Shown piece by piece: positions 3,724-58,700 of a DNA stretch of 64,000 bases. Source of the stretch: a virus; the UHGV virus genome UHGV-0214148. One strand, written 5' to 3'. The notes beneath the pieces are model-generated. The model did no database searches and was not told where the DNA came from. It saw only the letters and a list, made by a program, of their open reading frames with translations. The first letter of the stretch is position 1; every line of letters begins with the position of its first letter. Position numbers and translations under genes: made by a program.

Positions 3724-3760
3724 CACTCTCTCCTAGGTAATATATATCTGAGAAAAAATA
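3724..3760 (-). promoter_or_regulatory. conserved promoter-like motif copy 1
   Basis: Minus-strand consensus TATTTTTTCTCAGATATATATTACCTAGGTGAGAG about 45 nt upstream of the ATG, directly after a terminator. Confidence 0.5.
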
Positions 3761-3796
3761 TAAAAACCGTAGGATGGACTAAGTCCATCCTACGGT
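3750..3796 (-). terminator. intrinsic terminator after tailspike gene
   Basis: Hairpin CCGTAGGATGGACT-AA-GTCCATCCTACGG followed by T-run on minus strand. Confidence 0.7.
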
Positions 3797-3801
3797 TTAA
3801 A

Positions 3802-5922
3802 TTAAATAACTACCCAGCTTTTGCCATCGGAACCAATCTGCATTAGCGTAATACTTTCATTGGTCTCAATGGGTTTGGCAAGACCTTCCGTCCCACTCTT
3901 TGGAGTGATGAGAACGTTTGAGTTTTCCGGTTTAACGATGATCTTACCAGCCTTATTTGCCACGATCTGTATATTTCTACCCACACTATATTCTAGATCA
4001 GGAATAGTAAGTTGGCCGCCACGGTTGGTGGCTGGGAAATACACATAAGACGACACATCTTCCTCAGATAACACTATACCACCAGAATCACGATTGACCG
4101 AGATCTCAAACTTAGAAATATCGATATCGTAGGCAGTAACTTTCGTAATATCTGTCAGAACCAATTCGTTCAAATCGGTATTAGCTGGACTGTTCGCCAG
4201 ATCAAACGGAGTGCCATTCTTGCCGTCAAGCACAGGTGTGACTTTGATTTTATTGTCACCCGGATAAATGATTTCAAGCGTATGCCAGTTATTATCGTAT
4301 GCACCAAAAGTTCCTAATTGCGCATTCTGCTTTTTATGATGCATCAGATAAAGATTCGTAGCGTCGGTCTGTAAGAAAAAAGACATTAGGTACGGGTTCG
4401 TCTTAGCCACACCAGCGTCAGCAAGTGTAGTACCAGAAGGTAGGTCGGACGCGGAAATACGCCAATAAAGTCCTAATCCGAAACGATCTGCTGCTAAATC
4501 ACCTTTTAGTCTAAAAGTAACGGTCAGACGTCCACCGTAACGTATCATGTCCGCAGCAGTCGCCATTGACTTAGTTACATTCCAAGGTTTCATCGTTACA
4601 GCCTTTCTTAATTCGACGAAATGCCCGTTTCCATCCTCAGTTTTTTGCACGGTTACGTTACAATCAACGATATTGTTCCAACCTTGCCCTTTCAGGGAAC
4701 CATCTCCACGACGACCGTTATAACCAACAGACTCTACTAATGGGGTATAGCTTCTTACCACATTCATATTGTCTTTGGAGCTCTTAGTGTCGTTCTTCGT
4801 CAGGAACATTGCACCAATCGCTGTTCTTGATAATATCTCGGCAGCTATTCTCTCTGAGATAATACCGCGTCGTGCCCAAGAACTGAAATGACTATTCCTT
4901 TCTGCAGACGTCCAGTTATCAGAACTACGGGAGGCAGCACCGTAATAGGCAGCACCAGTGATATTAGGATCGTCAGTGGGATCATTAGTCGGAACATGTT
5001 GGCCATTATCGTCGTACATGAATGGAACAAAAAAGATATTTTTTTGTTCGTTGTTACGATAATTACCGTATATGGTTTCATATTGAGCAGGATATTTTTC
5101 CTTCCAATAATAGGTAGTGTCCCCACAGATCCATGGTACTTCGGCGGTGGCGTACTCGGGCATCTGAGAGAGATGGTCAGAGAGATCAGTTCGGAAACGC
5201 TCTACCATTGCGTTAAATAACGCTGGTTGTTGTGCGTATTGTACTTTAGTCAGATCATACTCTCCCTGCATCCACACTACAGCCAAGAGTTTATTTTTAG
5301 GATTAACTTCCAGGGCTTTTTTGGTCCGGCTAACTAAATCTTTATAAAGCGGTTTGTCCACCCCCCATACCGATGACGCCGCAGAGGCTCCTGTGGCTTC
5401 ATCGAAGGTACCTTCTGCACCACCCGTGAAAGCAGAACCGCCGCGTGCGCAGGGTACTAGTAAGATACCGGCGTTCTTAGGAATATACGGGAGAAGACGC
5501 TTCGCGATATGAAGACCTTGACCCACACATCCGTATTCACCTTTGTCTAAATTGGCATTGGGATGCGAGTATTTGGACATATCTTGCACGTCGTGCAGAC
5601 AGTGATCCGCTGGAATGACGTCGTTATATTTACAATCAGCCCCATTAGGCGTTACCTTCGCACGGCGCGCCATCTGTTTAATTCGCGGATCGGGAGCGTC
5701 CAACGTCGCCGGTAGAGGCAACCCTTCACCATAACTCATCGCATTAGATTGCCCGGCTATAGGAATCACGAAGTAATACTCCGGCTCCGTCGTGCCCTGA
5801 AGTTTTGCAATATCAATTTTATATTCTTTTTCTTCCTTAGAAAGAAGAACTAACGCACCTTTGAGATCGCCAGAGAAATTGTCGAGTTCATGGATACGTT
5901 TCTTTCCAATTGGCTGACTCAT
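3802..5922 (-). CDS. tailspike / tail fibre protein with carbohydrate esterase (SGNH/SASA-like, GQSN motif) domain
   Basis: N-terminal about 35 aa is similar to the N-terminus of the 1479-aa fibre (shared anchor domain). Motif IPIAGQSNAMSYGEG resembles the catalytic GQSNM block of sialate-O-acetylesterase-type SGNH hydrolases found in esterase tailspikes. Confidence 0.6.
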   Translation of the reverse strand: MSQPIGKKRIHELDNFSGDLKGALVLLSKEEKEYKIDIAKLQGTTEPEYYFVIPIAGQSNAMSYGEGLPLPATLDAPDPRIKQMARRAKVTPNGADCKYNDVIPADHCLHDVQDMSKYSHPNANLDKGEYGCVGQGLHIAKRLLPYIPKNAGILLVPCARGGSAFTGGAEGTFDEATGASAASSVWGVDKPLYKDLVSRTKKALEVNPKNKLLAVVWMQGEYDLTKVQYAQQPALFNAMVERFRTDLSDHLSQMPEYATAEVPWICGDTTYYWKEKYPAQYETIYGNYRNNEQKNIFFVPFMYDDNGQHVPTNDPTDDPNITGAAYYGAASRSSDNWTSAERNSHFSSWARRGIISERIAAEILSRTAIGAMFLTKNDTKSSKDNMNVVRSYTPLVESVGYNGRRGDGSLKGQGWNNIVDCNVTVQKTEDGNGHFVELRKAVTMKPWNVTKSMATAADMIRYGGRLTVTFRLKGDLAADRFGLGLYWRISASDLPSGTTLADAGVAKTNPYLMSFFLQTDATNLYLMHHKKQNAQLGTFGAYDNNWHTLEIIYPGDNKIKVTPVLDGKNGTPFDLANSPANTDLNELVLTDITKVTAYDIDISKFEISVNRDSGGIVLSEEDVSSYVYFPATNRGGQLTIPDLEYSVGRNIQIVANKAGKIIVKPENSNVLITPKSGTEGLAKPIETNESITLMQIGSDGKSWVVI

Positions 5923-5925
5923 CTA

Positions 5926-6438
5926 CTACTCTCCAAAAGTTAAGATTTTATTGTCAAACGTCAACACGACAGAATCATCACCGATGCCACACGGTGTTTC
6001 ATCTGGGCCGAAAACCACCACGGAGAACTGTCCTTTATAAGCGATGGAATTTGGAGCGATGCTAAGCGTTACCGCGTCTTTACCTACCGTGAACGACTGG
6101 TCGGTTAAATCGTCGGTTTGTAAGTTAGCACCACAAACGGCATTGACGGATTCGATAAGATCGTGTGCATTAAACCCTTCACCTATTACTTTTACCAGAA
6201 TAGGTTGTTGGTTTAACCACCGCTCTGCGGTTAAACGGTTGTAGTAGATTTGCAACGTTCTGTTTCCAGGACGTTTAATCTTTACAATGGCAGTGGAGTC
6301 ACGATCCATTTCATCACTGGTTTTTACGTCACTGACTTCAACCTCGTTCTCTTGCAAGTCAAGTTGGAGGTCATGGTTAACCAGTGAAATAACCATGTTA
6401 AGTGAAGTTAGTGATAAATCTGGTGTGAATTTTTCCAC
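5926..6438 (-). CDS. tail-fibre-associated protein, paralog of 12527..13087 (GTG start)
   Basis: GTG start with AGGAGG RBS; clear similarity to 12527..13087 (PDLSL...LVNHD..., YY.RL.A...L...PIL, N..D....VN..CG.NLQ..DL); sits immediately upstream of a fibre gene. Confidence 0.7.
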   Translation of the reverse strand: MEKFTPDLSLTSLNMVISLVNHDLQLDLQENEVEVSDVKTSDEMDRDSTAIVKIKRPGNRTLQIYYNRLTAERWLNQQPILVKVIGEGFNAHDLIESVNAVCGANLQTDDLTDQSFTVGKDAVTLSIAPNSIAYKGQFSVVVFGPDETPCGIGDDSVVLTFDNKILTFGE

Positions 6439-6492
6439 GTATGTTTACCTCCTAAGGTTGGGGGTCATAAAATATTGACTAAAAAACATTCA

Positions 6493-6501
6493 CCCCCCCC
6501 C
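6493..6501. repeat. homopolymeric C9 tract (G9 on coding strand), intergenic between adhesin paralog and fibre-associated gene
   Basis: Read directly from sequence. Confidence 0.95.
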
Positions 6502-6535
6502 ACGATTATTTTCAACCGCTTTCAGTTGAAAATAA

Positions 6536-6979
6536 TTAGCTAATTCTCAAATCACGCAGTGCGCCTGTCGATTTCATCGCGTTTTGGAACGCGCCACTGA
6601 TGTTATTAGTCCAGTAATAATGCTGTCCGTTAATAACCTGCTGATAGGTCAGTGCGCAGGTGTTACCACCTAAATTTACGGTAATGTTAGAGGCTCTGCC
6701 TCCTTGTAAGTAAACCGCTAAAGTAGGCTTTGCGTTGGCAACTATCGTCGTTAACTGTAACTCAATACCTACTAAAGTTCCCACCCCGCAGTTACCCGCG
6801 TTTTGAATGGTTCCCTGATTTTTCTGGTTTAACGGCCAGCTTGGTCCTACCGCGCCCCATTTCTTACCTAAAGAATCGCTATATGCAGCGGTTGCAATTT
6901 TACAGCCCATAGATCTTCCCACCATTTGACTCATCATAAAAGGTCTACCCAATCCTAATTTACTACCAGCAGCGCTCAT
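6536..6979 (-). CDS. gp38-like tail-fibre adhesin paralog; annotated from internal ATG, true start probably ATG at 7044 disrupted by G10 tract
   Basis: Paralog of 7298..7843. Upstream ATG (7044..7042) with AGGAG RBS is followed by G10 then TAA; one extra G restores a 22-aa extension MGGGVTGSWVGSSAKNETGEQW that matches the N-terminus of the paralog. Confidence 0.6.
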   Translation of the reverse strand: MSAAGSKLGLGRPFMMSQMVGRSMGCKIATAAYSDSLGKKWGAVGPSWPLNQKNQGTIQNAGNCGVGTLVGIELQLTTIVANAKPTLAVYLQGGRASNITVNLGGNTCALTYQQVINGQHYYWTNNISGAFQNAMKSTGALRDLRIS

Positions 6980-7032
6980 CCATTGTTCGCCCGTTTCGTT
7001 CTTAGCCGAAGAACCGACCCACGAACCGGTTA

Positions 7033-7042
7033 CCCCCCCCCC
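7033..7042. repeat. homopolymeric C10 tract (G10 on coding strand) immediately after an ATG with AGGAG RBS; frameshifts the adhesin paralog N-terminus
   Basis: Read directly; minus strand AGGAGatcgcgATG-G9-TAA. Confidence 0.95.
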
Positions 7043-7056
7043 ATCGCGATCTCCTG

Positions 7057-7287
7057 TTAAGATTTTCTACATGTTATTGAATCGAAAGCACCACGCCCAA
7101 CCCAACGCCAATTATAATGATGATCAGCTTTATAAAGTGTGTATCTGCCCTGCTTTTTTACGTCGAAAATATTGATCGTAGTCTCTTCATTACCCAGCTT
7201 AGCTGTGCCGTAACATACAGGTTCGGGTAGTTGTTGACATCCACTTACTGTAAGCAATGCGAAACCCAGTAAAACTTTTCTTAACAT
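7057..7287 (-). CDS. small lipoprotein (76 aa; signal peptide with lipobox LTVSGC)
   Basis: N-terminal MLRKVLLGFALLTVSGC is a typical signal peptidase II substrate; located between the two adhesin paralogs. Confidence 0.65.
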   Translation of the reverse strand: MLRKVLLGFALLTVSGCQQLPEPVCYGTAKLGNEETTINIFDVKKQGRYTLYKADHHYNWRWVGRGAFDSITCRKS

Positions 7288-7297
7288 CTTTCTGTCC

Positions 7298-7843
7298 TTA
7301 GACTACACTTATTGAAATTGTTGCACCGTTCTGATTAAATAACCAGTTGGTTGCCGTCTTAGCCTCATAGCGCCGGACGCCGTTACTGTAAGAGTACGGT
7401 AGAAAAGTAATCTTCGTTCCGTTAAACGAAAGCGTAATATTCTGATTTGGTCCATTAGTTAGGGCCATGTAGATAATACCAGTATTTTGTACTTGGCTAA
7501 GATGTGTGACGCTACAACCCAAGATCGAACCTGACACCGAACCGGCCGCATTTTGTGTTTGCACACGATTCGATACTGTAGAACCAGCACCCGTTGTTGT
7601 AGAGTTGTTCGAATACCCCCCATACGTATTTGTAATAGGAACCCACTGCGTGTTCGTAGCCTGCACCAAAACAACATAGGTTGATCGGCCTACAACGAGT
7701 TTAAGATCCTCTACGCTACGCCCGACCATCTGCGACATGTTAAATGGTGTGCTCAGTTTAAGCTTATTACCTGCCACACTCATCCACTCCTGACCGGTTA
7801 CTGCCTTTGCTGAGCTTCCAACCCAGCCGGATGCTACCCCCAT
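7298..7843 (-). CDS. gp38-like tail-fibre tip adhesin (181 aa)
   Basis: N-terminus MGVASGWVGSSAKAVTGQEWMSVAG...MSQMVGRS resembles, from memory, the conserved fibre-attachment N-terminus of T2-type gp38 adhesins; directly downstream of the long fibre gene, as in T-even 37-38 order. Confidence 0.55.
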   Translation of the reverse strand: MGVASGWVGSSAKAVTGQEWMSVAGNKLKLSTPFNMSQMVGRSVEDLKLVVGRSTYVVLVQATNTQWVPITNTYGGYSNNSTTTGAGSTVSNRVQTQNAAGSVSGSILGCSVTHLSQVQNTGIIYMALTNGPNQNITLSFNGTKITFLPYSYSNGVRRYEAKTATNWLFNQNGATISISVV

Positions 7844-7884
7844 AAATCCTCCAAACTAAAATAGGGGGATTACTCCCCCTATCT

Positions 7885-12324: not shown

Positions 12325-12526
12325 GATATTTAATTCTCTATCGGGAGCTAAAAGATCTGAGGAAGTGTTTTACCCCTCAACATTTTTATAAGCGGATTAT
12401 TATACTGGTTTTAATCCATCATCTTCTAACGTGAAAGTGATGCCCAACTCCGCGCTTCATGATTTGGGATTGTTAAGTTTTGATAAAAGTTTGCTTTGAC
12501 CTCCATTACCGGTAAAACGGTCAAGT

Positions 12527-13087: not shown

Positions 13088-13100
13088 TAAAACCTCCCAG

Positions 13101-13145
13101 ATCAAAAAAATAAAAACACCTACCGCCCATAGAATCGGGCGGTAG
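13101..13145 (-). terminator. intrinsic terminator (hairpin CTACCGCCC...GGGCGGTAG + T-run)
   Basis: Stem-loop plus TTTTTATTTTTTT on minus strand; mistranslated as N-terminus in ORF track. Confidence 0.6.
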
Positions 13146-13173
13146 ACAGTCATTTTACAGCTAAAAAATCAAA

Positions 13174-14472: not shown

Positions 14473-14474
14473 GC

Positions 14475-15167: not shown

Positions 15168-15649
15168 TATTTATTCTCAACTAATACTGTGTGAAATGCT
15201 TTGTAAAGAGCTTGACGTGTCTCAATTAACGCGGGACGATTAATCAAGCACATGTATCCAATTTTCCAAGACCAGTAAGAAGTGTCGTCGGTATTTAACC
15301 CGTAATCAGGTTCAAGATATACCAAATCCGTGTATGCATCTGGTATATAAAGACGACACAAACTAAGATTCCAGAAATTCGGTAAATCCGATTTTGCAAG
15401 TTCAGTCATAACCTGCATTGGAATCTGACTTCCAATAGCGTCTGTTGCAAAAACGATATGCAGATTTCCAGGTGACTTAGAATACATACCGTGACCTTCA
15501 CAACTCCACATTGTCGCCAAGTGTGGATGGTCGTTGATTAGCTTGCAGGTGTCACGAACACCTTTTTCAATATAGCCGTTTTTAACTGCAAACTGACTAC
15601 GCTCTTTAAATGATGCTAGTCTTTCTGCATCAACAGAAAATTGATTCAT
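15167..15649 (-). CDS. hypothetical protein (160 aa)
   Basis: ORF track; start overlaps upstream stop. Confidence 0.75.
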   Translation of the reverse strand: MNQFSVDAERLASFKERSQFAVKNGYIEKGVRDTCKLINDHPHLATMWSCEGHGMYSKSPGNLHIVFATDAIGSQIPMQVMTELAKSDLPNFWNLSLCRLYIPDAYTDLVYLEPDYGLNTDDTSYWSWKIGYMCLINRPALIETRQALYKAFHTVLVENK

Positions 15650-16502: not shown

Positions 16503-16548
16503 CTCTATATTCTCCTAATCATTAAAATAGCCGCAGTTGTAAAAAAGA

Positions 16549-17564: not shown

Positions 17565-17606
17565 CGAAGAAAAATAAAAGTACCCTCTCTCCTAACGGAG
17601 AGAGGG
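17565..17606 (-). terminator. intrinsic terminator (CCCTCTCTCC-TAAC-GGAGAGAGGG)
   Basis: 10-bp GC-rich stem then T-run on minus strand. Confidence 0.7.
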
Positions 17607-17613: not shown

Positions 17614-17883
17614 TTAAATCTTACGGCTGCTACCGTAGCAGCCACGACCGGCTGTCGTTTTCGCAGCACTGACAGGCGCTAACGCAACCATCGTACCATC
17701 GTCCTTAACAATCTGTAAGTTACCTGCGCGAACCAGACCTTTAAAGGTAATCTTCACGCCCTTACGTAAACTCTTCACATTGAAACCGTCGAGTTTGAGT
17801 GTTTTGATTTTCTCAGGTTTACCTTCTTCGTAATAAGAAAGTACATTACCTGCACGTTTTTCAACAATATAGATCTTAGCCAT
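17614..17883 (-). CDS. hypothetical small basic protein (89 aa), own promoter-like motif and terminator
   Basis: Flanked by promoter-like motif (17914..17947) and terminator (17565..17606). Confidence 0.7.
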   Translation of the reverse strand: MAKIYIVEKRAGNVLSYYEEGKPEKIKTLKLDGFNVKSLRKGVKITFKGLVRAGNLQIVKDDGTMVALAPVSAAKTTAGRGCYGSSRKI

Positions 17884-17913: not shown

Positions 17914-17947
17914 TTCTCACATAGATGAAATATATCTTAAATTTTTT
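17914..17947 (-). promoter_or_regulatory. promoter-like motif copy 5 (degenerate; contains 14-bp palindrome GTGAGAATTCTCAC)
   Basis: AAGATATATTTCATCTATGTGAGAATTCTCAC upstream of 17614..17883. Confidence 0.4.
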
Positions 17948-17956
17948 AGACAGCCA

Positions 17957-18611: not shown

Positions 18612-18652
18612 CCGTAAAAATAAATACTCCCTCTCTCCAAACGGAGAGAGGG
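18612..18652 (-). terminator. intrinsic terminator (CCCTCTCTCC-AAAC-GGAGAGAGGG)
   Basis: Same stem sequence as 17565..17606. Confidence 0.7.
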
Positions 18653-22049: not shown

Positions 22050-22089
22050 AGTTGTAAAAACAAAAAAGAAAGGGGAACCGAAGTTCCCC
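22050..22089 (-). terminator. intrinsic terminator (GGGGAAC-CGAA-GTTCCCC)
   Basis: Hairpin + T-run on minus strand. Confidence 0.65.
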
Positions 22090-22794: not shown

Positions 22795-23154
22795 TTAGTG
22801 TGTTGCGGCGTTAGTGATAAAACGCACATTCTTCGTGGTGCGTTTAATGGACGTGTTTGCAACGTAGTCCAACGCGGACTCTACGTGAACGGTTACTGAG
22901 CAACGACCCTTAACGGAATTAAAACTAATCTGGTATTTCAGACGAATCGCATCAGCAACTTTCATCATAATCGGCAAACTTAAACGTTCTGAGTGATCGT
23001 TCTTAATAGACGAGATAACGGGTTGTGAAACTTTCGCAAGCTGGGCAAGTTCACGCTGAGTAATGTCTTTTGTGGTCAAATGACGAATTACGTAAGACAA
23101 GTGAAGACCGAATTTACGCTTTGCCAGAATGATGGAATTGTGATTGTAAGCCAT
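22795..23154 (-). CDS. putative HTH DNA-binding regulator (119 aa)
   Basis: Segment ITQRELAQLAKVSQPVISSIKN resembles an XRE-type helix-turn-helix; follows a promoter-like motif copy. Confidence 0.5.
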   Translation of the reverse strand: MAYNHNSIILAKRKFGLHLSYVIRHLTTKDITQRELAQLAKVSQPVISSIKNDHSERLSLPIMMKVADAIRLKYQISFNSVKGRCSVTVHVESALDYVANTSIKRTTKNVRFITNAATH

Positions 23155-23203
23155 TGTAAATACTCCTTTAGGTTAACAAGTCGGTGTAAAGAGTTAATCA
23201 TAA

Positions 23204-23238
23204 CTCTCACCTAGGTAATATATATCTGAGAAAAAATA
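23204..23238 (-). promoter_or_regulatory. conserved promoter-like motif copy 2
   Basis: Near-identical to copy 1; upstream of HTH gene. Confidence 0.5.
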
Positions 23239-23268
23239 AAATATAGGTACCACCGTTGGGTGGTACCT
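23231..23268 (-). terminator. intrinsic terminator after tmk
   Basis: AGGTACCACC-GTTG-GGTGGTACCT + T-run. Confidence 0.65.
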
Positions 23269-23274
23269 AAGCGG

Positions 23275-23932: not shown

Positions 23933-23960
23933 CCTCTCACAATGAGAGTAACAGTTGTAA
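23933..23960 (-). promoter_or_regulatory. promoter-like motif copy 6 (weak; shares GTGAGAG core)
   Basis: Upstream of tmk at similar spacing. Confidence 0.3.
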
Positions 23961-23964: not shown

Positions 23965-24006
23965 TTACAATAAAAAAAGAAACCCGCCCCTACCGTTAAG
24001 TAGGGG
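23965..24006 (-). terminator. intrinsic terminator
   Basis: CCCCTAC-loop-GTAGGGG + T-run. Confidence 0.65.
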
Positions 24007-28887: not shown

Positions 28888-29363
28888 CGGTCTACCTCAT
28901 CAAGATGATCGCGTAGCCATGGCATCGACTCTAAGCGCGGAATCATATTCCGTGTGTTCGGCGAAAACCATAGCGCTTCACGATATTTCTTTTTGAAACG
29001 TTCCCAGTGATACGAGAAAGGTTTGGGTGTAAAACCGCGCTCTTTTAGCACCTCCTCCCAAACCAAGTCTTTAATAAAATCGTCCACTAAAATTAATACC
29101 AACACTTTCCATTTACTGCGTCGGTAGTGCCGTGTAAAAGATTTGCGGAGATCAGAAAAGTCCTCTCGACGACGAGAACGTACTGCTGGAGTTGCCTTCT
29201 CTTTAAATTGCGAACAAGGATTATGTTGTAGTATCGTTACAGGAACTCCCCGAACACGGCCTGTACGTAAATCAACCTCGTGTGCGGGGATAACTTCAAC
29301 GCAACGTAACACTTTTGCTTTATTGCCTTCCAAGCACCGCGTCTCATATTCGACACGAATCAT
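28884..29363 (-). CDS. hypothetical basic protein (159 aa)
   Basis: ORF track. Confidence 0.7.
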   Translation of the reverse strand: MIRVEYETRCLEGNKAKVLRCVEVIPAHEVDLRTGRVRGVPVTILQHNPCSQFKEKATPAVRSRRREDFSDLRKSFTRHYRRSKWKVLVLILVDDFIKDLVWEEVLKERGFTPKPFSYHWERFKKKYREALWFSPNTRNMIPRLESMPWLRDHLDEVDR

Positions 29364-29382: not shown

Positions 29383-29859
29383 CTAATAAATCTTATCCGC
29401 AACAGAGAGAAAGATGGGGGTGTTTTCAATAAAATCCACCAAATATCCTTCTTCCGGCGGGGCGTATGACGAATCAACGTTACTGTTCGTCATACGAAAA
29501 TACCGACGGGAGTCACTGGCAATAAACCATCGGTCTATTTGGAAGCCTTTTTTGGAAAAGAAACACAACCCGTCTATGTTTGAGGGATGGACACGACACA
29601 TCACCATTTGACGATCTGAATTAAGTTGAACGTATTTCAGTAAAAAGGAACCTACGCCGCTACGACGAGAACCTTCGGCCACTACCAGATAGATAAGATT
29701 CCCCGGTTCCCAGATTGCAACCCCATGTGTAATATCGTCTTCAACAGCCAACGTGATTCTAACTGGCGTTTCCCGAATCGAATTTAAGTCGTTGACGTAT
29801 TCACGTAATTCAGGAAATTTAGCGGAAATTTTGTCTTCGGTAATATCTAACTGCTGCAT
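29383..29859 (-). CDS. GNAT family N-acetyltransferase
   Basis: Motif VVAEGSRRSGVGSFLL and FFSKKGF. Confidence 0.7.
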   Translation of the reverse strand: MQQLDITEDKISAKFPELREYVNDLNSIRETPVRITLAVEDDITHGVAIWEPGNLIYLVVAEGSRRSGVGSFLLKYVQLNSDRQMVMCRVHPSNIDGLCFFSKKGFQIDRWFIASDSRRYFRMTNSNVDSSYAPPEEGYLVDFIENTPIFLSVADKIY

Positions 29860-30539: not shown

Positions 30540-30554
30540 AGTATGTTTAAAAAT

Positions 30555-30597
30555 TGTAAAAATAAAAAGAAGTAACCTCTACCCGAAGGTAGAGGTT
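30555..30597 (-). terminator. intrinsic terminator
   Basis: AACCTCTACC-CGAA-GGTAGAGGTT + T-run. Confidence 0.65.
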
Positions 30598-38559: not shown

Positions 38560-38597
38560 TGGGGAATAAAAATAAAGGAGGAGAGCCGAAGCTCTCC
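38560..38597 (-). terminator. intrinsic terminator
   Basis: GGAGAGC-CGAA-GCTCTCC + T-run. Confidence 0.6.
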
Positions 38598-38607
38598 TGT
38601 GGGGCGA

Positions 38608-42366: not shown

Positions 42367-43377
42367 TTACGTTAGCATCCCTATAAATGCGACACCCGCC
42401 GCCAAATACGCAGGGACAGATTTAAATAGGTCTGAGCCGTCCTTACGAATGTAAGAACGCGTCTCGTAGAATTCTTTACGCGCCTCAGCCCGTGACTTCG
42501 CTTCCAATTCCTGTTGCTTGAATGCTAAAGTCAATCGCTCCTTTTCTAAAGCCATGCTCTGTAGTTGTTTCTTGTGTTCCAATTCTAACTTGTCTTTTGC
42601 CGAATCCAAGCTTTCTAATTTTTCTTTGTACTGCTCCTCTAAACGTTGCTTAATCTCAAAGAGGCCGGGAACTGCTTCTTGCCATCGAAACGCGTCTGCC
42701 GCTGCCTCATCCTTAAATAATCTAAACGGTGAAGTAATGTCGTCAAATTCAAAATGAATCATTCGACTGCCTTCCACCCTCGTTCCACCTCCTATTATCA
42801 TGTAAACGCCCGGTTCATAATAGCGTGACGTTATTGGTTCGATTTTCATTTTCGTACCGTAGAAACGTAGCCACCGATAATTGTCAGGCTCGTCGTAGCG
42901 CTGCACAACAACAACACCCAATGTAAATTCAGTGCGCTCACCTCCAGGGCGCATAGTTGGGGGTTTACTATCTAAGCGTATCGGTGTTGTTGAGAAAGCA
43001 AAGCCTAACTGCTTTAGTACAACCAAATCTCCTCGCAGCAACGCACCAACGTCGTTTACTGCATACTCTAACGTTACCTCCCCTTTTTCTTTCAATTGGT
43101 CGCAAAAGCGAGAAAACTGTTTTCCCGGCATCAGTTCAGCAAACCCATTGAGATTCGCGCATCTTCCGTATGATTGATACGTCACGTAAACGATAACCCC
43201 ATGCTCATCAGCGGGGTTTTTCGAAGCATTTAAAATAAAGCTACCGCCACTGGTTTCAGTGACGTGGATAGGCACGCCAGTGTTATTTTCAAACGTAACA
43301 AGTTTCCTCAATCCAGACGTTTGACATAACGAGCGTTCAGAGATACTGGGCACCACATCAATATCAAGACGTTTCAT
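42367..43377 (-). CDS. hypothetical protein (336 aa) with C-terminal coiled coil
   Basis: ORF track; promoter-like motif about 90 nt upstream with a 16-codon leader ORF. Confidence 0.75.
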   Translation of the reverse strand: MKRLDIDVVPSISERSLCQTSGLRKLVTFENNTGVPIHVTETSGGSFILNASKNPADEHGVIVYVTYQSYGRCANLNGFAELMPGKQFSRFCDQLKEKGEVTLEYAVNDVGALLRGDLVVLKQLGFAFSTTPIRLDSKPPTMRPGGERTEFTLGVVVVQRYDEPDNYRWLRFYGTKMKIEPITSRYYEPGVYMIIGGGTRVEGSRMIHFEFDDITSPFRLFKDEAAADAFRWQEAVPGLFEIKQRLEEQYKEKLESLDSAKDKLELEHKKQLQSMALEKERLTLAFKQQELEAKSRAEARKEFYETRSYIRKDGSDLFKSVPAYLAAGVAFIGMLT

Positions 43378-43465
43378 GGGAACCCAAGCTAAATTTTAAT
43401 GATGACACATATCTTTAGTTTAAACTGTATTTTTTCCATACATACTCCTTTAAAACCAACTGGCC

Positions 43466-43500
43466 GTCTCCCTTTAATAATATCTATCCAAAAAATAATA
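43466..43500 (-). promoter_or_regulatory. promoter-like motif copy 7 (degenerate, ends ...TATTAAAGGGAGAC)
   Basis: GGATAGATATTATTAAAGGGAGACG following the capsid-gene terminator. Confidence 0.4.
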
Positions 43501-43552
43501 GAAAGAAAAAAAAATAAAAGGTCTAAGCCCCGAAGGGCTTAGACTCTTTTTA
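43495..43552. terminator. strong bidirectional terminator downstream of 764-aa virion gene
   Basis: A-run-GTCTAAGCCC-CGAA-GGGCTTAGAC-TCTTTTT. Confidence 0.75.
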
Positions 43553-48271: not shown

Positions 48272-48332
48272 TTTTCATTACCTTTCGTAATGTTGTAAAA
48301 ACGTCAACAACTTTATGTGTTGACACCGTACA

Positions 48333-48420
48333 GTAGAGACTGTTCCACCAGTCTCTACTGCTTTAACTTCTCTTTGGAAAAGTTAAAGCTAAGAAAAGGG
48401 GTGGTGAAGCACCCTTTTTT
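48333..48420. other. structured intergenic unit U1: variable 10-bp hairpin + conserved 31-nt box + terminator-like hairpin
   Basis: GTAGAGACTG-TTCCAC-CAGTCTCTAC, then TGCTTTAACTTCTCTTTGGAAAAGTTAAAGC, then GGGTG hairpin + T6. Confidence 0.6.
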
Positions 48421-48666: not shown

Positions 48667-48728
48667 GGTAAGCCCTCTTTGTAGGGTGATTAAAGAAATC
48701 CACTACGGAAACGTGGTGGTGCTGTAAA

Positions 48729-48828
48729 GGGTACGCTGGTGCTACAGCGTACCCTGCTTTAACTTCTCTTTCGAAAAGTTAAAGCTATGTAAAGGGGTGT
48801 GACAGCACCCCTTTATTTTATTTAGTAG
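48729..48828. other. structured intergenic unit U2 (same architecture)
   Basis: GGGTACGCTG-GTGCTA-CAGCGTACCC + conserved box + terminator hairpin. Confidence 0.6.
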
Positions 48829-48992: not shown

Positions 48993-49020
48993 GTTAAAAC
49001 CTCACACGAGTTGGGGATTA

Positions 49021-49140
49021 AGCTATTACGTACCGGTAATAGCGACAAGTAGGGACTGTATAGGCAGTCCCTACTGCTTTAACTTCTCTTTCGAAAAGAT
49101 AAAGCGCCTATGGGGAGTGTTGGCGCATTCCCCCTTTAGG
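49021..49140. other. structured intergenic unit U3 (same architecture, preceded by 22-bp palindrome)
   Basis: GTAGGGACTG-TATAGG-CAGTCCCTAC (compensatory change relative to U1) + conserved box + hairpin. Confidence 0.6.
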
Positions 49141-49153
49141 TTGTTACCCCCTC

Positions 49154-49282: not shown

Positions 49283-49358
49283 GAACTTATCTCCTATGTT
49301 GAATTTGCGAAAATAAATAAAGTGTACCCCTAATCCCGAAAAGGATTAGGGGTTGCTT

Positions 49359-50174: not shown

Positions 50175-50190
50175 CTTTTATGCTCCAATT

Positions 50191-50223
50191 AATAAAAAAA
50201 TTAAGGGCACCCGAAGGTGCCTT
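50191..50223 (-). terminator. intrinsic terminator after small lipoprotein gene
   Basis: AGGGCACC-CGAA-GGTGCCTT + T-run. Confidence 0.6.
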
Positions 50224-50228
50224 ATACA

Positions 50229-50372
50229 TTAACCACGACCAGTGCACTGTGCAACGGAATTACCGTTGTCGATGCAAGTGTCGTAGCCTTTGTCGATGTC
50301 CAGATACAGGCAACCCAGAACAACAGCGATAACAACAGCGAAGATAGCTTTTTTGTGTTTTACAGAAATCAT
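50229..50372 (-). CDS. small putative lipoprotein / membrane peptide (47 aa)
   Basis: MISVKHKKAIFAVVIAVVLGC... with lipobox-like VLGC; own promoter-like motif (50418..50443) and terminator (50191..50223); below ORF-track cutoff. Confidence 0.55.
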   Translation of the reverse strand: MISVKHKKAIFAVVIAVVLGCLYLDIDKGYDTCIDNGNSVAQCTGRG

Positions 50373-50417
50373 GATATAACTCCTAATTAAGTATTCGATA
50401 AATGAGTATTACGTAAA

Positions 50418-50443
50418 CTCTCACCTAGGTAATATATATCTGA
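50418..50443 (-). promoter_or_regulatory. conserved promoter-like motif copy 3
   Basis: Core CAGATATATATTACCTAGGTGAGAG upstream of small lipoprotein gene. Confidence 0.5.
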
Positions 50444-50559
50444 AATCTTTTTGAATCCATATACCCTCTAGAACGCTCTAAAACGCATTCTGACGCAATT
50501 TTCTTTTTAAAGGGTAATTAGTCGTCTTAGCGGTTAAATGACTTCTGCGTGTCGTTTAG

Positions 50560-50602
50560 GAATAAATAAAAGGTATTCCCGTTACCCATAGAGGTAACGG
50601 GA
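50560..50602 (-). terminator. intrinsic terminator
   Basis: TCCCGTTACC-loop-GGTAACGGGA + T-run. Confidence 0.6.
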
Positions 50603-50607
50603 AGTTT

Positions 50608-51414: not shown

Positions 51415-51440
51415 ATCCTTTAGGTTACGGACGACATAAT

Positions 51441-52760: not shown

Positions 52761-53299
52761 TACAGAATTCCTCCACGTCTACGGTATATCTGTTCAATAC
52801 GGTGCATAATCGTATCGTTGAACTGATGCCGCTCTGTTTCCAATCGGACTTCGCCAAATAACGCTTGTACGGAAACCGCCATTGTTACTTCGGGTTTCTT
52901 AAAGTAACCGTAACGGTTCGCTACCGGGAACAGTTTACGCGCTAACGCATTAAACTGACGCAAGCCCTCCATAGGGACTTTACGTGTTGTCAGGTGTGGG
53001 GTCTGCATGTAATTTAGCCAATCAGCTAAGTGTTCCATGATATACCCGTACACGATGATCCCGTCATGTGGGTCGTGGACGTCTAACGCCGCGCCAGATT
53101 CTGCATAAACCGCAACTTCGAAAGGTCGCATGTATACAGTCTTTTTATTGAGCAGTATCGCGCGTGCTTTTTTCTCGTCTTCCGGTAAGAACAACCCATG
53201 TTCCTGAGACATGTACGTTGAAATCGTCGTCCATTCAGGGACACGCCATCCCACCCACTTGTGAAACAGCATAAATGCTGCGCTACGTTTTTCAGCCAC
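52760..53299 (-). CDS. hypothetical protein (start revised to GTG 53299 with GAGGGA RBS)
   Basis: ORF track start 53401 overlaps upstream gene by 100 nt. Confidence 0.6.
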   Translation of the reverse strand: MAEKRSAAFMLFHKWVGWRVPEWTTISTYMSQEHGLFLPEDEKKARAILLNKKTVYMRPFEVAVYAESGAALDVHDPHDGIIVYGYIMEHLADWLNYMQTPHLTTRKVPMEGLRQFNALARKLFPVANRYGYFKKPEVTMAVSVQALFGEVRLETERHQFNDTIMHRIEQIYRRRGGIL

Positions 53300-53300
53300 G

Positions 53301-54671: not shown

Positions 54672-56160
54672 TCTCTGTTCCTCGCATGGTAATAATGGTC
54701 GAGTTCAGCACCGTCAATAACACACGGGCTTCTACGTTCGGAATCAGTTTATTAATGTCATCGATAACACTCGGCGGTAACACCGGCTTATCCCACCACC
54801 AATCAGGAACGTCCCATTTCGGGAACAACCACTCAATTAATACTTTCGCTGCCTGTGGATATAACTGTAATGGCCAGAGGTTCATTCCACGCCAGTCAAA
54901 CATGACCGATTCGGTTAAGTAATAACCCTTATTTACTTTCAGGTCACGACCTTTAAGCGAAAACGTATTTCCTTCCCAATGGTAGAAACGCGGTTCGATA
55001 ATCTGTCCCTCTTCGAACAACTCGATACGGAAAACACCCGTCTGTCCTGTCGGGTCGATCGCACGACAATGTTCGATATACGGTAGCAACGCTTCGTTCC
55101 ATTCGTAAGGTAAATCTTCCGTAGACATCACCTTCGGCGATAACATGTTGTCCGGTTCAAAAACAACATCTGTACCGAAAATCGGTAAGAGTTTATCTTT
55201 AAGCGGGGAGTGCGTACGATGGAACTGTTCCGTGGGAGATAACAAATACGGGAGACGAATATACTGACGAGTTTCGTTAATCCACCAGGTTGAATCGAGA
55301 TTCTTCTGTTGTGGATGGCGGTAAACTAACTCCTCGTTAGATACCCACGGAGGATCTATCTCCGGCCAATATTCATCGGGCAGTGGTGTCTGATTGATGA
55401 TATACGGATACGATACCACAATCTCTTCAGGGCGCTGATAAGAGAAACGGATAACGAACGTTGCTTCCCAGTGGTTTTCATCTTTATCCCAAGCCGGTGT
55501 TTGAACGTCATATACCGTTTCTAAACGCGTAGGTGCGTAACGTACCGCAATGGTTTCCTGCCCCCCGGCAACATTGGCTGCACGAAATACGTCGGGCGTA
55601 AAATACGCTTTCAAATAAGCTTTAAAATCGTCAAACGTCGGTACTCGTGTTCCTGCAGCAACGTAGCAGGCATTCAACAACTTTAACGCGGGTTTAGGGA
55701 TATAATAGAACGCTTCTGACTCTGTCATGGTCGAATAACGGCCCATGTCCACTAATGAGTCTAAACGGTTCGTCCAGCGCAATAACTCATCACGTGAGGC
55801 ACTGGTACGTCGTAACGTTACTGTTACGTTATACATCGTTCTAACGGGCCAGGCGCGTACCTGATCGACACGGTTCTCAAAGAAGTACGGTTCAGCCTGC
55901 TGACCAACCTGACGATTGATTCTGGCCCACTCATCGCGTTCTTCTTCTACTTCAACGTAAACCTTTTCAGGTGAACTGTACTCTACTTCAGTACCGTCAC
56001 CTAAAGTAGAATCCGGTTGATGGGCGCTATTGAATTCATCGAGGAAAACAACCGCTGCTGTATCAATACCAGACTCATTAAGTACACGTTGTATAACGCC
56101 ATCGATTATTGGTTTGCGAATGGTCGCGTCTAACGACGGAATTTCAAAATACTGTTGCAT
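54652..56160 (-). CDS. hypothetical protein (502 aa)
   Basis: ORF track. Confidence 0.8.
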   Translation of the reverse strand: MQQYFEIPSLDATIRKPIIDGVIQRVLNESGIDTAAVVFLDEFNSAHQPDSTLGDGTEVEYSSPEKVYVEVEEERDEWARINRQVGQQAEPYFFENRVDQVRAWPVRTMYNVTVTLRRTSASRDELLRWTNRLDSLVDMGRYSTMTESEAFYYIPKPALKLLNACYVAAGTRVPTFDDFKAYLKAYFTPDVFRAANVAGGQETIAVRYAPTRLETVYDVQTPAWDKDENHWEATFVIRFSYQRPEEIVVSYPYIINQTPLPDEYWPEIDPPWVSNEELVYRHPQQKNLDSTWWINETRQYIRLPYLLSPTEQFHRTHSPLKDKLLPIFGTDVVFEPDNMLSPKVMSTEDLPYEWNEALLPYIEHCRAIDPTGQTGVFRIELFEEGQIIEPRFYHWEGNTFSLKGRDLKVNKGYYLTESVMFDWRGMNLWPLQLYPQAAKVLIEWLFPKWDVPDWWWDKPVLPPSVIDDINKLIPNVEARVLLTVLNSTIITMRGTENAQSEA

Positions 56161-56250
56161 TGGCTTGTTCCTTCGTTATAGTCATATCACAGGCGCGAAA
56201 TGAAAAAAAAAATAAAAGGGAACCGAAGCCCCCTTTTACGTTTAACCTGC

Positions 56251-56547
56251 CTATAACAGATAAGGTATACCTTCAAAGATAATCTCATCGTTAGCGAAGC
56301 CAACAGACGCTTCCTCACCCCCAGAGGTGGTTGCCCAAATCTCTGCCGCAAAACGCTGGTTGTTAATCAACAGCCCACGGTTGTTTTCGAACAACACTAT
56401 CAAGATCAACCTGACGCTTTTCTCTTGATGTAAACGGCGTATAAACGCGTGCTTTACAGGAGAAGGATACCAGGTGAAGCGCGCTATTTTCCCTTTCGCA
56501 ACTCTACCTAAAAAGAGCTTTTCTAAGGTTACAAACTCAGTGCCCAT
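56251..56547 (-). CDS. hypothetical protein (start revised to ATG 56547)
   Basis: ORF track start 56583 overlaps DHFR by 47 nt. Confidence 0.5.
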   Translation of the reverse strand: MGTEFVTLEKLFLGRVAKGKIARFTWYPSPVKHAFIRRLHQEKSVRLILIVLFENNRGLLINNQRFAAEIWATTSGGEEASVGFANDEIIFEGIPYLL

Positions 56548-57073
56548 CTCTTTTCCAAATCTGATAATGCCAACGCGGAACATCGCTATCCGGTTTGGAA
56601 GCGTGCGTTAAGTTATAAACCAGTCTAAACGTGTTACGATCGATTTCAGGAAAGAACGCATCCGCACCATCGACTTTAACTTCTACGCGTGACAAGTAAA
56701 TCTTATCCACGTAAGGTAACGCCTGATGGTAAATTTCTGCACCACCGATAATAAAGATTTCTTTAGGATAACCCTTTTTCTCAACCTCAGTTTTGAGGAA
56801 CTCAATAATCGAACCCATTTCACCCTTAAGGTTAAGCACCCCATCGATTTCGGGCACACCACCAGGTCTTCTCGTCAACACGACATGGTGACGATTAGGC
56901 AGGGGTTTATGCCCTAACGATTCCCATGTCTTGCTTCCCATCACGATAACCTTACCTGATGTAAGTGCCTTAAAATTCTTTAAGTCATCGGGAATACGCC
57001 ACGGTAATTTATTGTCTTTCCCAATTTCGTTATTCAACCCAGCAGCAGCTATCATCGAAACTGTAATTGTCAT
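56537..57073 (-). CDS. folA: dihydrofolate reductase
   Basis: MIAAAGLNNEIGKDNKLPW...VMGSKTWESLG...IGGAEIY matches the DHFR signature; true start is ATG at 57073 with GGAG RBS (ORF-track N-terminal extension rejected). Confidence 0.88.
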   Translation of the reverse strand: MTITVSMIAAAGLNNEIGKDNKLPWRIPDDLKNFKALTSGKVIVMGSKTWESLGHKPLPNRHHVVLTRRPGGVPEIDGVLNLKGEMGSIIEFLKTEVEKKGYPKEIFIIGGAEIYHQALPYVDKIYLSRVEVKVDGADAFFPEIDRNTFRLVYNLTHASKPDSDVPRWHYQIWKRDGH

Positions 57074-57375
57074 TTCTTTATCTCCAGTGAGCCTCTTAAA
57101 TGGCGTATAAAATCTTTTCGGGTATACCGACTCGTTTTGTACTGATCGGCTAAATGGTAAACGGTAACGTACCGCCCTTTGGCTTCCATATGCAAATGCG
57201 TTATATTGCCATCGTTCGTAGGGAGTGGTCTGATCAGAGGAATCATCAAATCCCCATTCCAACCAGGTTCATTAAGTCTCGGTATCAGTAATCGAATGTC
57301 TAGCCGTTTTACGCAGTACACCACATTACTTTCCGGCAACTTAACAACACATATCGCATCGGCTTTGAGTTTCAT
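57070..57375 (-). CDS. hypothetical protein (101 aa)
   Basis: ATGA overlap with DHFR start. Confidence 0.65.
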   Translation of the reverse strand: MKLKADAICVVKLPESNVVYCVKRLDIRLLIPRLNEPGWNGDLMIPLIRPLPTNDGNITHLHMEAKGRYVTVYHLADQYKTSRYTRKDFIRHLRGSLEIKK

Positions 57376-57377
57376 TT

Positions 57378-57977
57378 TTAACCTTCCTGGTATTGTCTAA
57401 TTCCGTAATCAGGTAGAATGTTTTCTACTGTGTTTTTCGGTACAACTGAAAGCTGGTTGTATAAATTCAACAAATCTTCACGCAGTAACTTCTGCTCGAT
57501 ATCAAGTTTATAACAAGCCAGTTCTTTTTCTAGCGGTTTAAGTAACACAACGCGTGTTTGAAAACCGTCAATAGGCTCAGGAACACGATAACCACGACGA
57601 CGGTAAAAGGTTTCCAGCTTCGAATAATCGCGAATGTATGTTTTCGTCAGTGTGGAATAACCTGCGTCTAACATAAACTTGTAGAACGGACGTAAAGCAA
57701 TGAAACGATCGTATTCCAGGTGTTCTGGAATATAGAATTCGTAATTGTTGTAAGTGAGCGTGGAGAGTTGAGAACCATTACAATGCGCACAGTTAATAAA
57801 AATAGCCAGTCCAATCATTACCGGACGTGGGACGATAAGGGTTTTATCGCCAAACCGAATACGAAAGATTTCCTGCTGTAAACTGGTTTCAGATACAACT
57901 TCAGCGTCTAAAATATTAAATTTGTTCATTTCTATTCTCCTAAAGGTCGAAAAAATAAAGCCCTCCGTAGAGGGCAT
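57378..57977 (-). CDS. hypothetical protein (199 aa)
   Basis: ORF track. Confidence 0.75.
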   Translation of the reverse strand: MPSTEGFIFSTFRRIEMNKFNILDAEVVSETSLQQEIFRIRFGDKTLIVPRPVMIGLAIFINCAHCNGSQLSTLTYNNYEFYIPEHLEYDRFIALRPFYKFMLDAGYSTLTKTYIRDYSKLETFYRRRGYRVPEPIDGFQTRVVLLKPLEKELACYKLDIEQKLLREDLLNLYNQLSVVPKNTVENILPDYGIRQYQEG

Positions 57978-57982
57978 TCTGA

Positions 57983-58624
57983 TTATAGAGCTTCGAAGAA
58001 ACGATCTACCGCCTGCGCAGCGGTAAGGTTAATCTGAATGAAAGTGCTTTCCTGTTCTGTTTCTTCGCTTGCTACCAGCGGGAGCAGCTTAAAGCCATCA
58101 CCTACTTCCAATACGCGCTCCACGATACGCGGTATGTCATTTAATCCAGATAGTGAACTGGTGACATCATCCATACGCATCTCGGCCGCATCATTCGCAA
58201 TACTGCAAACCAACTCTTCATTCGTAGGTTCAACAATACGAAAGTAGATAACGGTCGTAAAGAACTTATTCTCGCCTTCACAGATAGCAACATGCGAATC
58301 TTCAAAAGAGTAATATTTCACACCATCAAAAGTTCTGGTAACAACCGGGGTGTTGACATCTTTAAGCAAGCTGTTTAAAAGGGTCTGTGGCAAACGGCTC
58401 TGAATTTCTGTTTTATACACAAATTCACGTCGACCAACCTTCAGCACCTCTTCATCAAGACCCTTACAGCCAGCGTCTATAGCCCTTGCTAACCAAATCG
58501 AAATTGCAATAACTTCGGCTTGATACAACGATAAGACTCTTGCGTTTGGTGCCGCCATTACGAGTTTGTCGCCTTCAACAGAAAAGGCACATTCACAGAA
58601 GTCAGCTAAATTGTAACGTGTCAT
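57983..58624 (-). CDS. hypothetical protein (213 aa)
   Basis: ORF track; promoter-like motif upstream. Confidence 0.75.
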   Translation of the reverse strand: MTRYNLADFCECAFSVEGDKLVMAAPNARVLSLYQAEVIAISIWLARAIDAGCKGLDEEVLKVGRREFVYKTEIQSRLPQTLLNSLLKDVNTPVVTRTFDGVKYYSFEDSHVAICEGENKFFTTVIYFRIVEPTNEELVCSIANDAAEMRMDDVTSSLSGLNDIPRIVERVLEVGDGFKLLPLVASEETEQESTFIQINLTAAQAVDRFFEAL

Positions 58625-58673
58625 GATAATTCTCCTAAACGTAATAAACAGGTCGTTAAAAGATTACATTGTA

Positions 58674-58700
58674 ATCTCACTAAGGTAATATCTATCTGAG
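58674..58700 (-). promoter_or_regulatory. conserved promoter-like motif copy 4 (degenerate)
   Basis: CTCAGATAGATATTACCTTAGTGAGAT upstream of 57983..58624. Confidence 0.45.

Follow-up and report, generated by a model that had tools for sequence, protein, structure and literature searches.

The window analysed here, a stretch of 64,000 nt from the virus genome UHGV-0214148, contains six copies of a promoter-like element of about 35 nt. With a probability of roughly 80%, these sites are early promoters of a phiKZ-related jumbo phage, and most of those of one sequence class (class A) have a leader predicted to begin with a 5' hairpin. Coordinates are those of the window unless another genome is named, and all +1 positions were predicted from the position of the motif. 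The predicted +1 positions were 3730, 17918, 23208, 43470, 50422 and 58678, all on the minus strand. Each of the six sites was intergenic and co-directional with the next gene downstream, and intergenic DNA made up only ~6.6% of the window.

The element spans approximately -34 to +1 and consists of A-34/T-32/A-29 AAA, T-23/T-21 CAGA, a core occupying -14 to -7, six spacer nucleotides of which the last is T, and G+1. A typical site reads AGATATATATTAC-CTAGGT-GAGAG. Three sites had the core (A)TATATTAC, and the variants GATATTAC, GATATTAT and TATTTCAT occupied the same positions in the other three. Class A was defined by AGATATATATTACYTAGGT-GAGAG (also cited as ...TATATTACCTAGGTGAGAG) and comprised four of the window sites.

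A first-pass annotation of the same DNA had reported a shared 35-nt consensus in seven copies, at 3724, 17914, 23204, 23933, 43466, 50418 and 58674. An exact copy of this 35-mer was located at 23204-23238 (minus strand) and a copy with one mismatch at 3726-3760 (minus strand), so that the first coordinate was off by 2 nt. The sites at 50418 and 58674 were near copies, those at 17914 and 43466 were recognisably related, and shuffled sequence yielded no matches. The T-run at the 5' end of the reported consensus was, at two sites, the tail of the upstream terminator and not part of the promoter. Six of the seven copies were real. The candidate at 23933 (23934-23960, minus strand) was rejected: it scored 0.6 bits in the proposed register, its AT-rich core failed, it had in common with the others only GTGAGAG, a small hairpin and CACTTAAC, and it was missed by the covariance model. 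An alternative register, AATTATTAC-N6-T, lacked the G start. Since this site failed, the tmk gene, previously listed among the genes driven, could not be demonstrated to be one. The stem-loop scan did place a terminator upstream of it, at 23987-24006.

A 27-nt position weight matrix (PWM) was trained on the six sites, listed by the first position of the motif as 3726, 17914, 23204, 43466, 50418 and 58674. The training sites scored 29-44 bits, no other site on either strand (128 kb) exceeded 8 bits, and shuffle maxima averaged 8.0 bits. Having been trained on its own six sites, the scan shows that there are no further copies and is not an independent validation. Nowhere else in the window was there a comparable match, and by chance none would be expected. 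A match in coding DNA at 29839-29852 (10.5 bits) had neither spacer nor start context and was attributed to chance. A k-mer count of intergenic DNA made blind to the motif recovered terminator tails, the ribosome-binding site (RBS) CCTAAAGGAG, and CAGATATATATTACCTAGG. By itself, the octamer TATATTAC was not enriched in the window (3 observed vs 2.0 expected); significance rests on the long motif and not on the octamer. The six sites are listed below, with scores from the PWM and from the hairpin-containing covariance model.

23208-23242, minus strand: class-A promoter, -34 to +1; core TATATTAC at 23215-23222; PWM 44.1 bits; covariance model 68.5 bits.
3730-3764, minus strand: class-A promoter with the one-mismatch 35-mer; core TATATTAC at 3737-3744; PWM 42.3 bits; covariance model 39.4 bits.
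50422-50456, minus strand: class-A promoter; core at 50429-50436; PWM 43.8 bits; covariance model 54.5 bits.
58678-58712, minus strand: promoter with the variant core GATAGATATTAC; PWM 38.7 bits; covariance model 46.6 bits.
43470-43504, minus strand: class-B-like promoter GGATAGATATTATTAAAGG-G; PWM 29.3 bits; no anchored hairpin; missed by the hairpin-containing model.
17918-17952, minus strand: degenerate promoter AAGATATATTTCATCTATGT-G; PWM 32.9 bits; covariance model 18.2 bits (E 0.18).

The early promoters of phiKZ, which are read by its virion RNA polymerase (vRNAP), were reportedly described by Ceyssens et al. in 2014 and later refined by differential RNA sequencing (dRNA-seq) and ONT-cappable-seq. 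For comparison, a phiKZ consensus was derived directly from the first 50 kb of the phiKZ sequence. In this region TATATTAC was the most over-represented 8-mer upstream of genes, which agrees with the statement in the first-pass annotation that it is the phiKZ early-promoter core. All seven copies (7/7) were intergenic and lay on the coding strand of the next gene. After each core came a spacer of six bases with T in the last place, and next to it G. Agreement with the window element extended upstream: T-32, A-29, A-28, T-21, A-19, T-1 and G+1 were found in 7/7 copies and T-23 in 6/7. The G located 6 nt past the core was present in 6/6 window sites, 7/7 phiKZ sites and, in a fixed 21-mer search, 42/42 sites from IMG/VR. 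One of the phiKZ copies precedes PHIKZ054, for which dRNA-seq has placed an early-promoter motif at a primary start site (PMC8244752).

Altogether, the window sites resembled those of phiKZ in the core TATATTAC, the 6-nt spacer ending in T, G+1, an ATT(C/A)AAA element 20 nt upstream of the core, intergenic co-directional placement, and a homologous virion RNA polymerase (RNAP) encoded in the lineage of the window. They differed in positions -20 to -15 (CAGATA) and in the spacer (CYTAGGT), which in the window's clade were clade-specific and far more uniform. The initially transcribed GAGAG and the anchored hairpin were missing from most phiKZ sites. The additional conservation near -20 and -30 in the window's clade matches the description given for phiKZ and 201phi2-1.

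In phage AR9 the early consensus, mapped by dRNA-seq and primer extension, is AAATATATATTAT-(6N)-G(+1), in short form ATATATTAT-N6-G; for phiKZ and phiR1-37, a distance of 6 nt from a conserved AT-rich element to the start is given (PMC5312081). The window sites share with AR9 the arrangement of ATATATTA(T/C), 6 nt and a G start. AR9 early promoters are highly conserved, sensitive to single changes, and read by an injected multisubunit RNAP. AR9 differs in its uracil-containing DNA, its Gram-positive host, a last core base that is T and not C, and the lack of a reported 5' hairpin. According to a review, each RNAP-encoding jumbo phage has a motif centred near -10 upstream of its early operons, which was confirmed wherever tested (PMC7598289). 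The window core, identical to that of phiKZ and almost so to that of AR9, has the place of the highly conserved AT-rich stretch of about 10 nt that typifies phiKZ-type early promoters. By homology to these mapped promoters, the window sites would be read early in infection by the virion polymerase, with transcription starting at the G. The match to phiKZ and AR9, together with the vRNAP encoded in the lineage, supports the suggestion of the first-pass annotation that a phage-encoded polymerase is responsible.

Recognition by host sigma-70 RNAP, with the AT-rich upstream DNA acting as an UP element, is very improbable. TATATT at -14 to -9 does match the -10 hexamer in five of six positions, at a distance roughly compatible with the predicted start. 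However, no -35 hexamer with at least 4/6 matches was present at 16-18 nt, there was no TG extension, and none of the motif sites was called. Counts of sigma-70-like sites did not exceed those in shuffled sequence (29 vs 34, 31 vs 33, 24 vs 30) and none overlapped the motif, in line with the earlier statement that the element has no sigma70 -35/-10 fit. In addition, the conserved C-7, T-1, G+1, A-34 and T-32 are irrelevant to sigma-70, and phiKZ-type infection is independent of host RNAP.

By protein content and gene order, the window was assigned to a new phiKZ-related jumbo phage of the SPN3US/phiEaH2 clade. Its proteins included a major head protein, internal head proteins, a DnaB-like helicase and a long tail fibre. 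A 731-aa (amino acid) virion protein was 75-82% identical to its counterparts in phiEaH2, Asesino and SPN3US, and the window was syntenic, in inverted orientation, with SPN3US 50-115 kb. Megablast of 8 kb against 50,697 phage records found no extended similarity, and the matches consisted of a methylase fragment and the motif. Apart from the methylase fragment, the promoter was the sole DNA common to the window and 38 jumbo-phage records in this search; the motif matches fell between genes, in stretches that carry no annotation, in jumbo phages of ~240 kb from Salmonella, Erwinia, Proteus and Escherichia.

The RNAP genes of SPN3US map outside the region syntenic to the window. A search beyond the window, as the first-pass annotation had advised, led to IMG/VR contig IMGVR_UViG_3300029126_000001 (225 kb), which was 96-99% identical to the window and encoded a 76% identical homologue of the 1401-aa SPN3US gp241. 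This head-associated protein is essential and forms the beta-N subunit of the virion RNA polymerase (PMC5105663). The lineage encodes the virion polymerase.

In the whole SPN3US genome there were 26 matrix matches in two groups. Class A comprised seven copies of tCAGATATATATTACyTAGGTGAGnG, and class B comprised ~15 copies of a looser motif around AGATAGATATTATCT. Five SPN3US sites corresponded in position to window sites:

SPN3US 56291, window 58674: after the internal head genes.
SPN3US 65410, window 50418: before the 47-aa lipoprotein-like gene.
SPN3US 72483, window 43466: after the major head gene.
SPN3US 94236, window 23204: before the helix-turn-helix (HTH) gene.
SPN3US 100812 (weak), window 17914: before a small gene of unknown function.

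Further SPN3US sites preceded presumed non-virion RNAP clusters: the site at 15611 directly precedes the operon with gene 17704, and the site at 28966 precedes genes 29014 and 31251. No motif copy was found upstream of the SPN3US virion RNAP genes. A motif before the non-virion but not the virion RNAP genes is the arrangement expected of virion-polymerase promoters, as in phiKZ and AR9. Three SPN3US class-B sites (15609/15611, 72679/72681 and 191597/191599) scored on both strands, AGATA-N5-TATCT being an inverted repeat. Those at 15.6 kb and 191.6 kb are located between divergent genes and might act bidirectionally.

The presence of two flavours in SPN3US, seven class-A and ~15 class-B sites with the hairpin only in class A, could also mean that the motif serves the second, non-virion RNAP (middle genes), or that the two classes are read by different polymerases or at different times; in 201phi2-1, promoter class and gene function sometimes mismatch expectation. 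This alternative is unlikely. Both classes have the GATATTA(C/T)-N6-G core of mapped vRNAP promoters, and the class-B sites precede non-virion RNAP genes, which are early in phiKZ and AR9. The motifs published for middle and late genes of phiKZ (a weak one, AT-rich or TACT, near -22 to -24; TATG, located at the start) and for late genes of AR9 (AACA-N6-TA/G) are all unlike the element.

In IMG/VR the 21-mer AGATATATATTACYTAGGTGA occurred 41 times in 14 contigs, 13 of which were 107-246 kb long and one of which was a 7-kb fragment. Conservation among 42 unique sites of the SPN3US-like clade continued outside the search pattern, with A-34 in 42/42, T-32 in 41/42, A-29 in 42/42 and T-21 in 42/42 sites.

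Every class-A copy was followed by an inverted repeat, the sequence of which varied from copy to copy. Over the first 30 nt from the predicted +1, the 42 unique class-A sites had a mean minimum free energy (MFE) of -5.7 kcal/mol, compared to -2.0 when shuffled, and in most of them the stem starts at +1. Chimeras, in which the first 11 nt came from one site and the remainder from a different one, averaged -3.6 kcal/mol, and 0/1000 permutations reached the real mean. The control stretch +36 to +65 gave -1.3 kcal/mol. In 25/38 sites an uninterrupted stem, anchored at +1 to +3, was 6 bp or longer, and the mean stem length was reached by 0/2000 permutations. Several pair types occurred at stem positions 4, 5, 7 and 8.

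Covariation was found in two alignments. In an ungapped alignment of nine sites, selected for equal geometry, 98.6% of cells paired, compared to 81.9% when shuffled. The covariance-model alignment of 49 distinct sequences gave 87.5% pairing vs 71.7% shuffled, with double compensatory changes in six of eight pairs (51 cells vs 16.9 expected); 0/500 shuffles reached the observed values and slid controls scored at most 0.05. The closing pair G+1-U was a G.U in 30 sequences, and G.U closing pairs fit an RNA structure and not a duplex-DNA palindrome. Between hairpin and RBS the leader was semi-conserved: aaCGACyuGUUaA...CCUAAAGGAG. The hairpin was a class-A feature only, as class-B sites of SPN3US and most phiKZ sites did not exceed shuffles. 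Of the window sites, 23208, 3730 and 58678 had strong hairpins, 50422 had a weak one, and 43470 had none that was anchored. At 17918 a palindrome, GUGAGAAUUCUCAC, spans -2 to +12. The three strong hairpins were as follows:

23189-23208, minus strand: hairpin +1 to +20, GAGAGUUA-ugau-UAACUCUU; MFE -7.5 kcal/mol; stem anchored at +1, with compensatory changes among homologous sites.
3708-3728, minus strand: hairpin +3 to +23, GAGUGAA-auuuacg-UUCACUC; MFE -7.6 kcal/mol; also recovered in the stem-loop scan.
58660-58678, minus strand: hairpin +1 to +19, GAGAUUAC-aau-GUAAUCUU; MFE -5.5 kcal/mol; 8-bp stem anchored at +1.

The hairpin is probably a 5'-terminal stabiliser of the mRNA, by analogy with known leaders. 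In E. coli mRNAs, neither RppH nor the 5' sensor of RNase E can act when a stem lies only a few nucleotides from the 5' end, and stem-loop stabilisers of the ompA type are said to have been described by Emory, Bouvet & Belasco in 1992. As in those leaders, where at most 2-4 nt are left unpaired at the 5' end, the hairpin lies 0-2 nt from the 5' end (here predicted), and its sequence varies while its pairing is kept. Unlike them, the window-clade stems are shorter, AU-rich and tied to one promoter class. In the literature searched, which did not include Ceyssens 2014 or Lavysh 2016, no paper linked jumbo-phage early transcripts to 5' stem-loops; a prior description is possible.

Less probably, the hairpin is a promoter-proximal site of attenuation or pausing, or is recognised when immediate-early mRNAs are exported, translated or processed. 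The 3' arm usually runs into UUU(U)A, the leader to the RBS is semi-conserved, and 201phi2-1 makes small RNAs by premature termination in 5' untranslated regions (UTRs). At -5 to -8 kcal/mol, with few base pairs and a high AU content, the stems differ from the terminators of this genome, which have GC-rich stems of 10-16 bp and long T-runs. Anchoring at the first nucleotides is a hallmark of 5'-end protection, as in ompA-type 5' stem-loops and in what RppH and RNase E require.

The long conservation could also reflect an operator overlapping the promoter and bound by a DNA-binding regulator, such as the HTH protein encoded after the best copy, which is improbable and would at most be an additional layer. 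Here ACCTAGGT at -8 to -1 forms an 8-bp palindrome, class B contains AGATA-N5-TATCT and scores on both strands, and both the window phage and SPN3US have kept an HTH gene after one of their class-A copies. However, ACTTAGGT in half of the class-A copies breaks the palindrome, and phiKZ has the same architecture without these palindromes. The downstream repeat keeps its pairing despite varying sequence and uses G.U pairs, which points to an RNA structure rather than a protein site. The hairpin promoters of phage N4 (PMC4496689) also have an inverted repeat and are read by a polymerase that the virion injects. The N4 enzyme, a single-subunit polymerase, recognises a DNA hairpin upstream of the start site. 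The window's clade does not fit the N4 type: its repeat lies downstream of the predicted +1 and contains G.U pairs, and its polymerase homologues are beta/beta' fragments of a multisubunit enzyme.

In the proposed mechanism, the injected virion RNAP would recognise the -34 to +1 element and start at the G. At most copies this would restart transcription just past the terminator of the preceding unit. The units driven would be small and early, encoding the HTH protein, the 47-aa lipoprotein-like peptide, and genes without known relatives. Their transcripts would carry leaders of 31-54 nt with a strong RBS, and a class-A transcript would begin with a hairpin of 6-9 bp anchored at +1 to +3. This hairpin would most likely shield the 5' end from 5'-end-dependent decay (RppH, RNase E).

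Several observations weigh against interpreting the sites as early promoters with a hairpin leader. The PWM was trained on the same six sites that it scored. The IMG/VR set was gathered with a fixed 21-mer, which by itself makes positions -19 to +2 invariant, and a large share of its sites are orthologues and not independent. Stems were shorter than 6 bp in 13/38 sites, and the 5' hairpin at 50422 was weak (-2.7 kcal/mol). The model-based alignment leans toward structure, again with many orthologous sites, and unguided MAFFT/RNAalifold on the transcribed region found no consensus structure, because loop lengths differ. In one subfamily the stem reaches G-2/T-1, which would lie outside the RNA if the predicted +1 is correct. 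Pfam searches of the large open reading frames (ORFs) found no RNAP domains within the window. Finally, no 5'-end, timing or rifampicin data for the window phage or any SPN3US-like phage were found in the literature searched.

The first-pass annotation had placed each copy after a terminator, which was directly the case at 3726, 23204, 43466 and 58674; at 50418 the terminator was ~130 nt upstream, and at 17914 there was none. Its distance of 40-90 nt from motif to start codon was close: predicted leader lengths were 51, 35, 54, 31, 50 and 54 nt in the order of the +1 positions, with a strong RBS in most, and the long gene after 43466 lay at 93 nt. The neighbouring features of each promoter were as follows:

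23244-23269, minus strand: intrinsic terminator that ends the tmk gene, immediately before the 23208 promoter; 11-bp stem and T-run, -21.8 kcal/mol.
22795-23154, minus strand: first gene after 23208, a 119-aa HTH DNA-binding protein (Cro/C1-type; Pfam HTH_37/HTH_3, phrog_7126); 5' UTR 54 nt.
3764-3798, minus strand: intrinsic terminator directly upstream of the 3730 promoter; 16-bp stem, -28.9 kcal/mol.
2828-3679, minus strand: first gene after 3730, 283 aa, without family match; 5' UTR 51 nt.
50229-50372, minus strand: lipoprotein-like gene, 47 aa (...VVLGC...), with an identical protein in a close relative; 5' UTR 50 nt.
58733-58761, minus strand: intrinsic terminator following the internal-head-protein gene 58780-60069 (minus strand); -21.9 kcal/mol.
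57983-58624, minus strand: first gene after 58678, 213 aa, without family match, a hypervariable allele; 5' UTR 54 nt.
43521-43544, minus strand: terminator upstream of the 43470 promoter.
43389-43439, minus strand: micro-ORF of 16 codons (MEKIQFKLKICVIIKI) with a strong RBS, 31 nt past the predicted +1 at 43470.
17614-17883, minus strand: first gene after 17918, 89 aa, phrog_12339; 5' UTR 35 nt.

The 50422 promoter has an upstream ATTCAAA element with the same spacing as in phiKZ, and the 47-aa gene forms a single-gene unit bounded by this promoter on one side and a terminator at 50206-50221 on the other. The 58678 site is a perfect class-A copy in relatives that are 96-98% identical. The micro-ORF at 43389-43439 precedes a 336-aa gene (42367-43377) that itself has no obvious RBS; at the equivalent place SPN3US has a small ORF and a second promoter. 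An ORF at 58711-60060 (plus strand, 449 aa) had no family match and was dismissed as a spurious shadow of the internal-head-protein gene. Two small ORFs on the plus strand, 43399-43542 and 50217-50390, similarly run across promoter regions. Terminators in the window shared the tail yTTTATTTTT (for example 3764-3798, 17583-17606, 18629-18652, 38579-38598, 43521-43544, 49326-49353 and 50576-50603), which resembles the conserved 'TTAT' tail reported for phiKZ terminators.

Composite units of terminator and promoter repeated around the genome resemble the promoter-early stem-loop (PeSL) cassettes of T4-type phages (PMC2839356, PMC4122927), which also combine a terminator stem-loop with an early promoter, repeated beside variable small genes; four of the six window sites directly follow a strong terminator. 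PeSLs carry host sigma-70 early promoters, and no sigma-70 arrangement was present at any window site. That the terminator-promoter-leader units are kept mainly as PeSL-like recombination cassettes shuffling accessory genes is doubtful. The sign of recombination was found at a single locus, 58674. The gene there (57983-58624) shows no homology to its positional counterpart in SPN3US and has ~35-40% aa identity (judged by eye) in two IMG/VR relatives, whereas the flanking DNA is 93-98% identical and the break falls at the cassette. This is one clear mosaic boundary in four class-A sites; no such break was seen at the others, and at 3726 and 50418 relatives retain both the site and its gene. A fast-evolving arms-race gene would explain the same data, with recombination a by-product of promoter function.

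The type of element is known and, according to a review (PMC7598289), predictable in every such phage; the copies in the window extend it. Since this kind of element is already established, the result extends rather than changes current understanding. Most worth following up are the covarying hairpin anchored at +1 and the position-by-position conservation with phiKZ. No paper in the literature searched, which lacked Ceyssens 2014 and Lavysh 2016, prints GATATATATTAC, and it may have been described before.

The class-A unit of promoter, +1 hairpin, semi-conserved leader and strong RBS might, with a rather low probability, be a dedicated immediate-early cassette of SPN3US-, phiEaH2-, Asesino- and Huxley/Machina-like phages, in which the hairpin would be a functional RNA signal marking a subset of virion-polymerase transcripts. 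No description of such a cassette was found in the searchable literature. If it is correct, the hairpin might protect transcripts from host RNases before the phage nucleus exists, or might single them out to leave the injection vesicle or to be translated preferentially, and the repeated cassettes might be recombination points at which host-takeover genes are swapped.

For an uncharacterised enterobacterial jumbo phage and its relatives, the motif provides a map, from sequence only, of the genes likely to be expressed first, which is where host-takeover and anti-defence functions are expected. Promoter recognition by the virion polymerase appears conserved by position from phiKZ to the distant SPN3US clade, which may be useful for the still unpurified vRNAP. 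The hairpin offers a cheaply testable hypothesis on the survival of early mRNA in the host cytoplasm before the phage nucleus.

Other elements were noted in the window. A structured element of ~100 nt was present in three copies on the minus strand: 48317-48418, 48713-48814 and 49033-49134. Its three hairpins are one that resembles a terminator, one of 13 bp that hardly varies (GCUUUAACUUUUC/GAGAAGUUAAAGC), and one of 11 bp that varies between copies, with compensatory differences (34 pairs, 10 compensatory, from only three copies). Each copy precedes a small minus-strand ORF and had no tRNA or Rfam match; tRNA and Rfam scans were both empty. Within IMG/VR the element was found only in two contigs of the window's lineage.

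Exact copies of TTTTTACAA(C/T) were located at 16536-16545, 22051-22060, 30553-30562 and 48292-48301, all on the minus strand and at least three of them intergenic, shortly past a terminator tail; the rejected site at 23933 has a version with one mismatch. As a second promoter motif, TTTTTACAAY was not enriched with one mismatch allowed (18 found vs 20.8 expected). TTTTTACAA(C/T) may be another promoter class or part of a terminator tail. Homopolymers of 9-10 G (C on the other strand) were found in the intergenic regions 1485-1533, 6439-6535 and 6980-7056, near the tail-fibre gene cluster, and could be slippage or phase-variation sites or sequencing-prone tracts.

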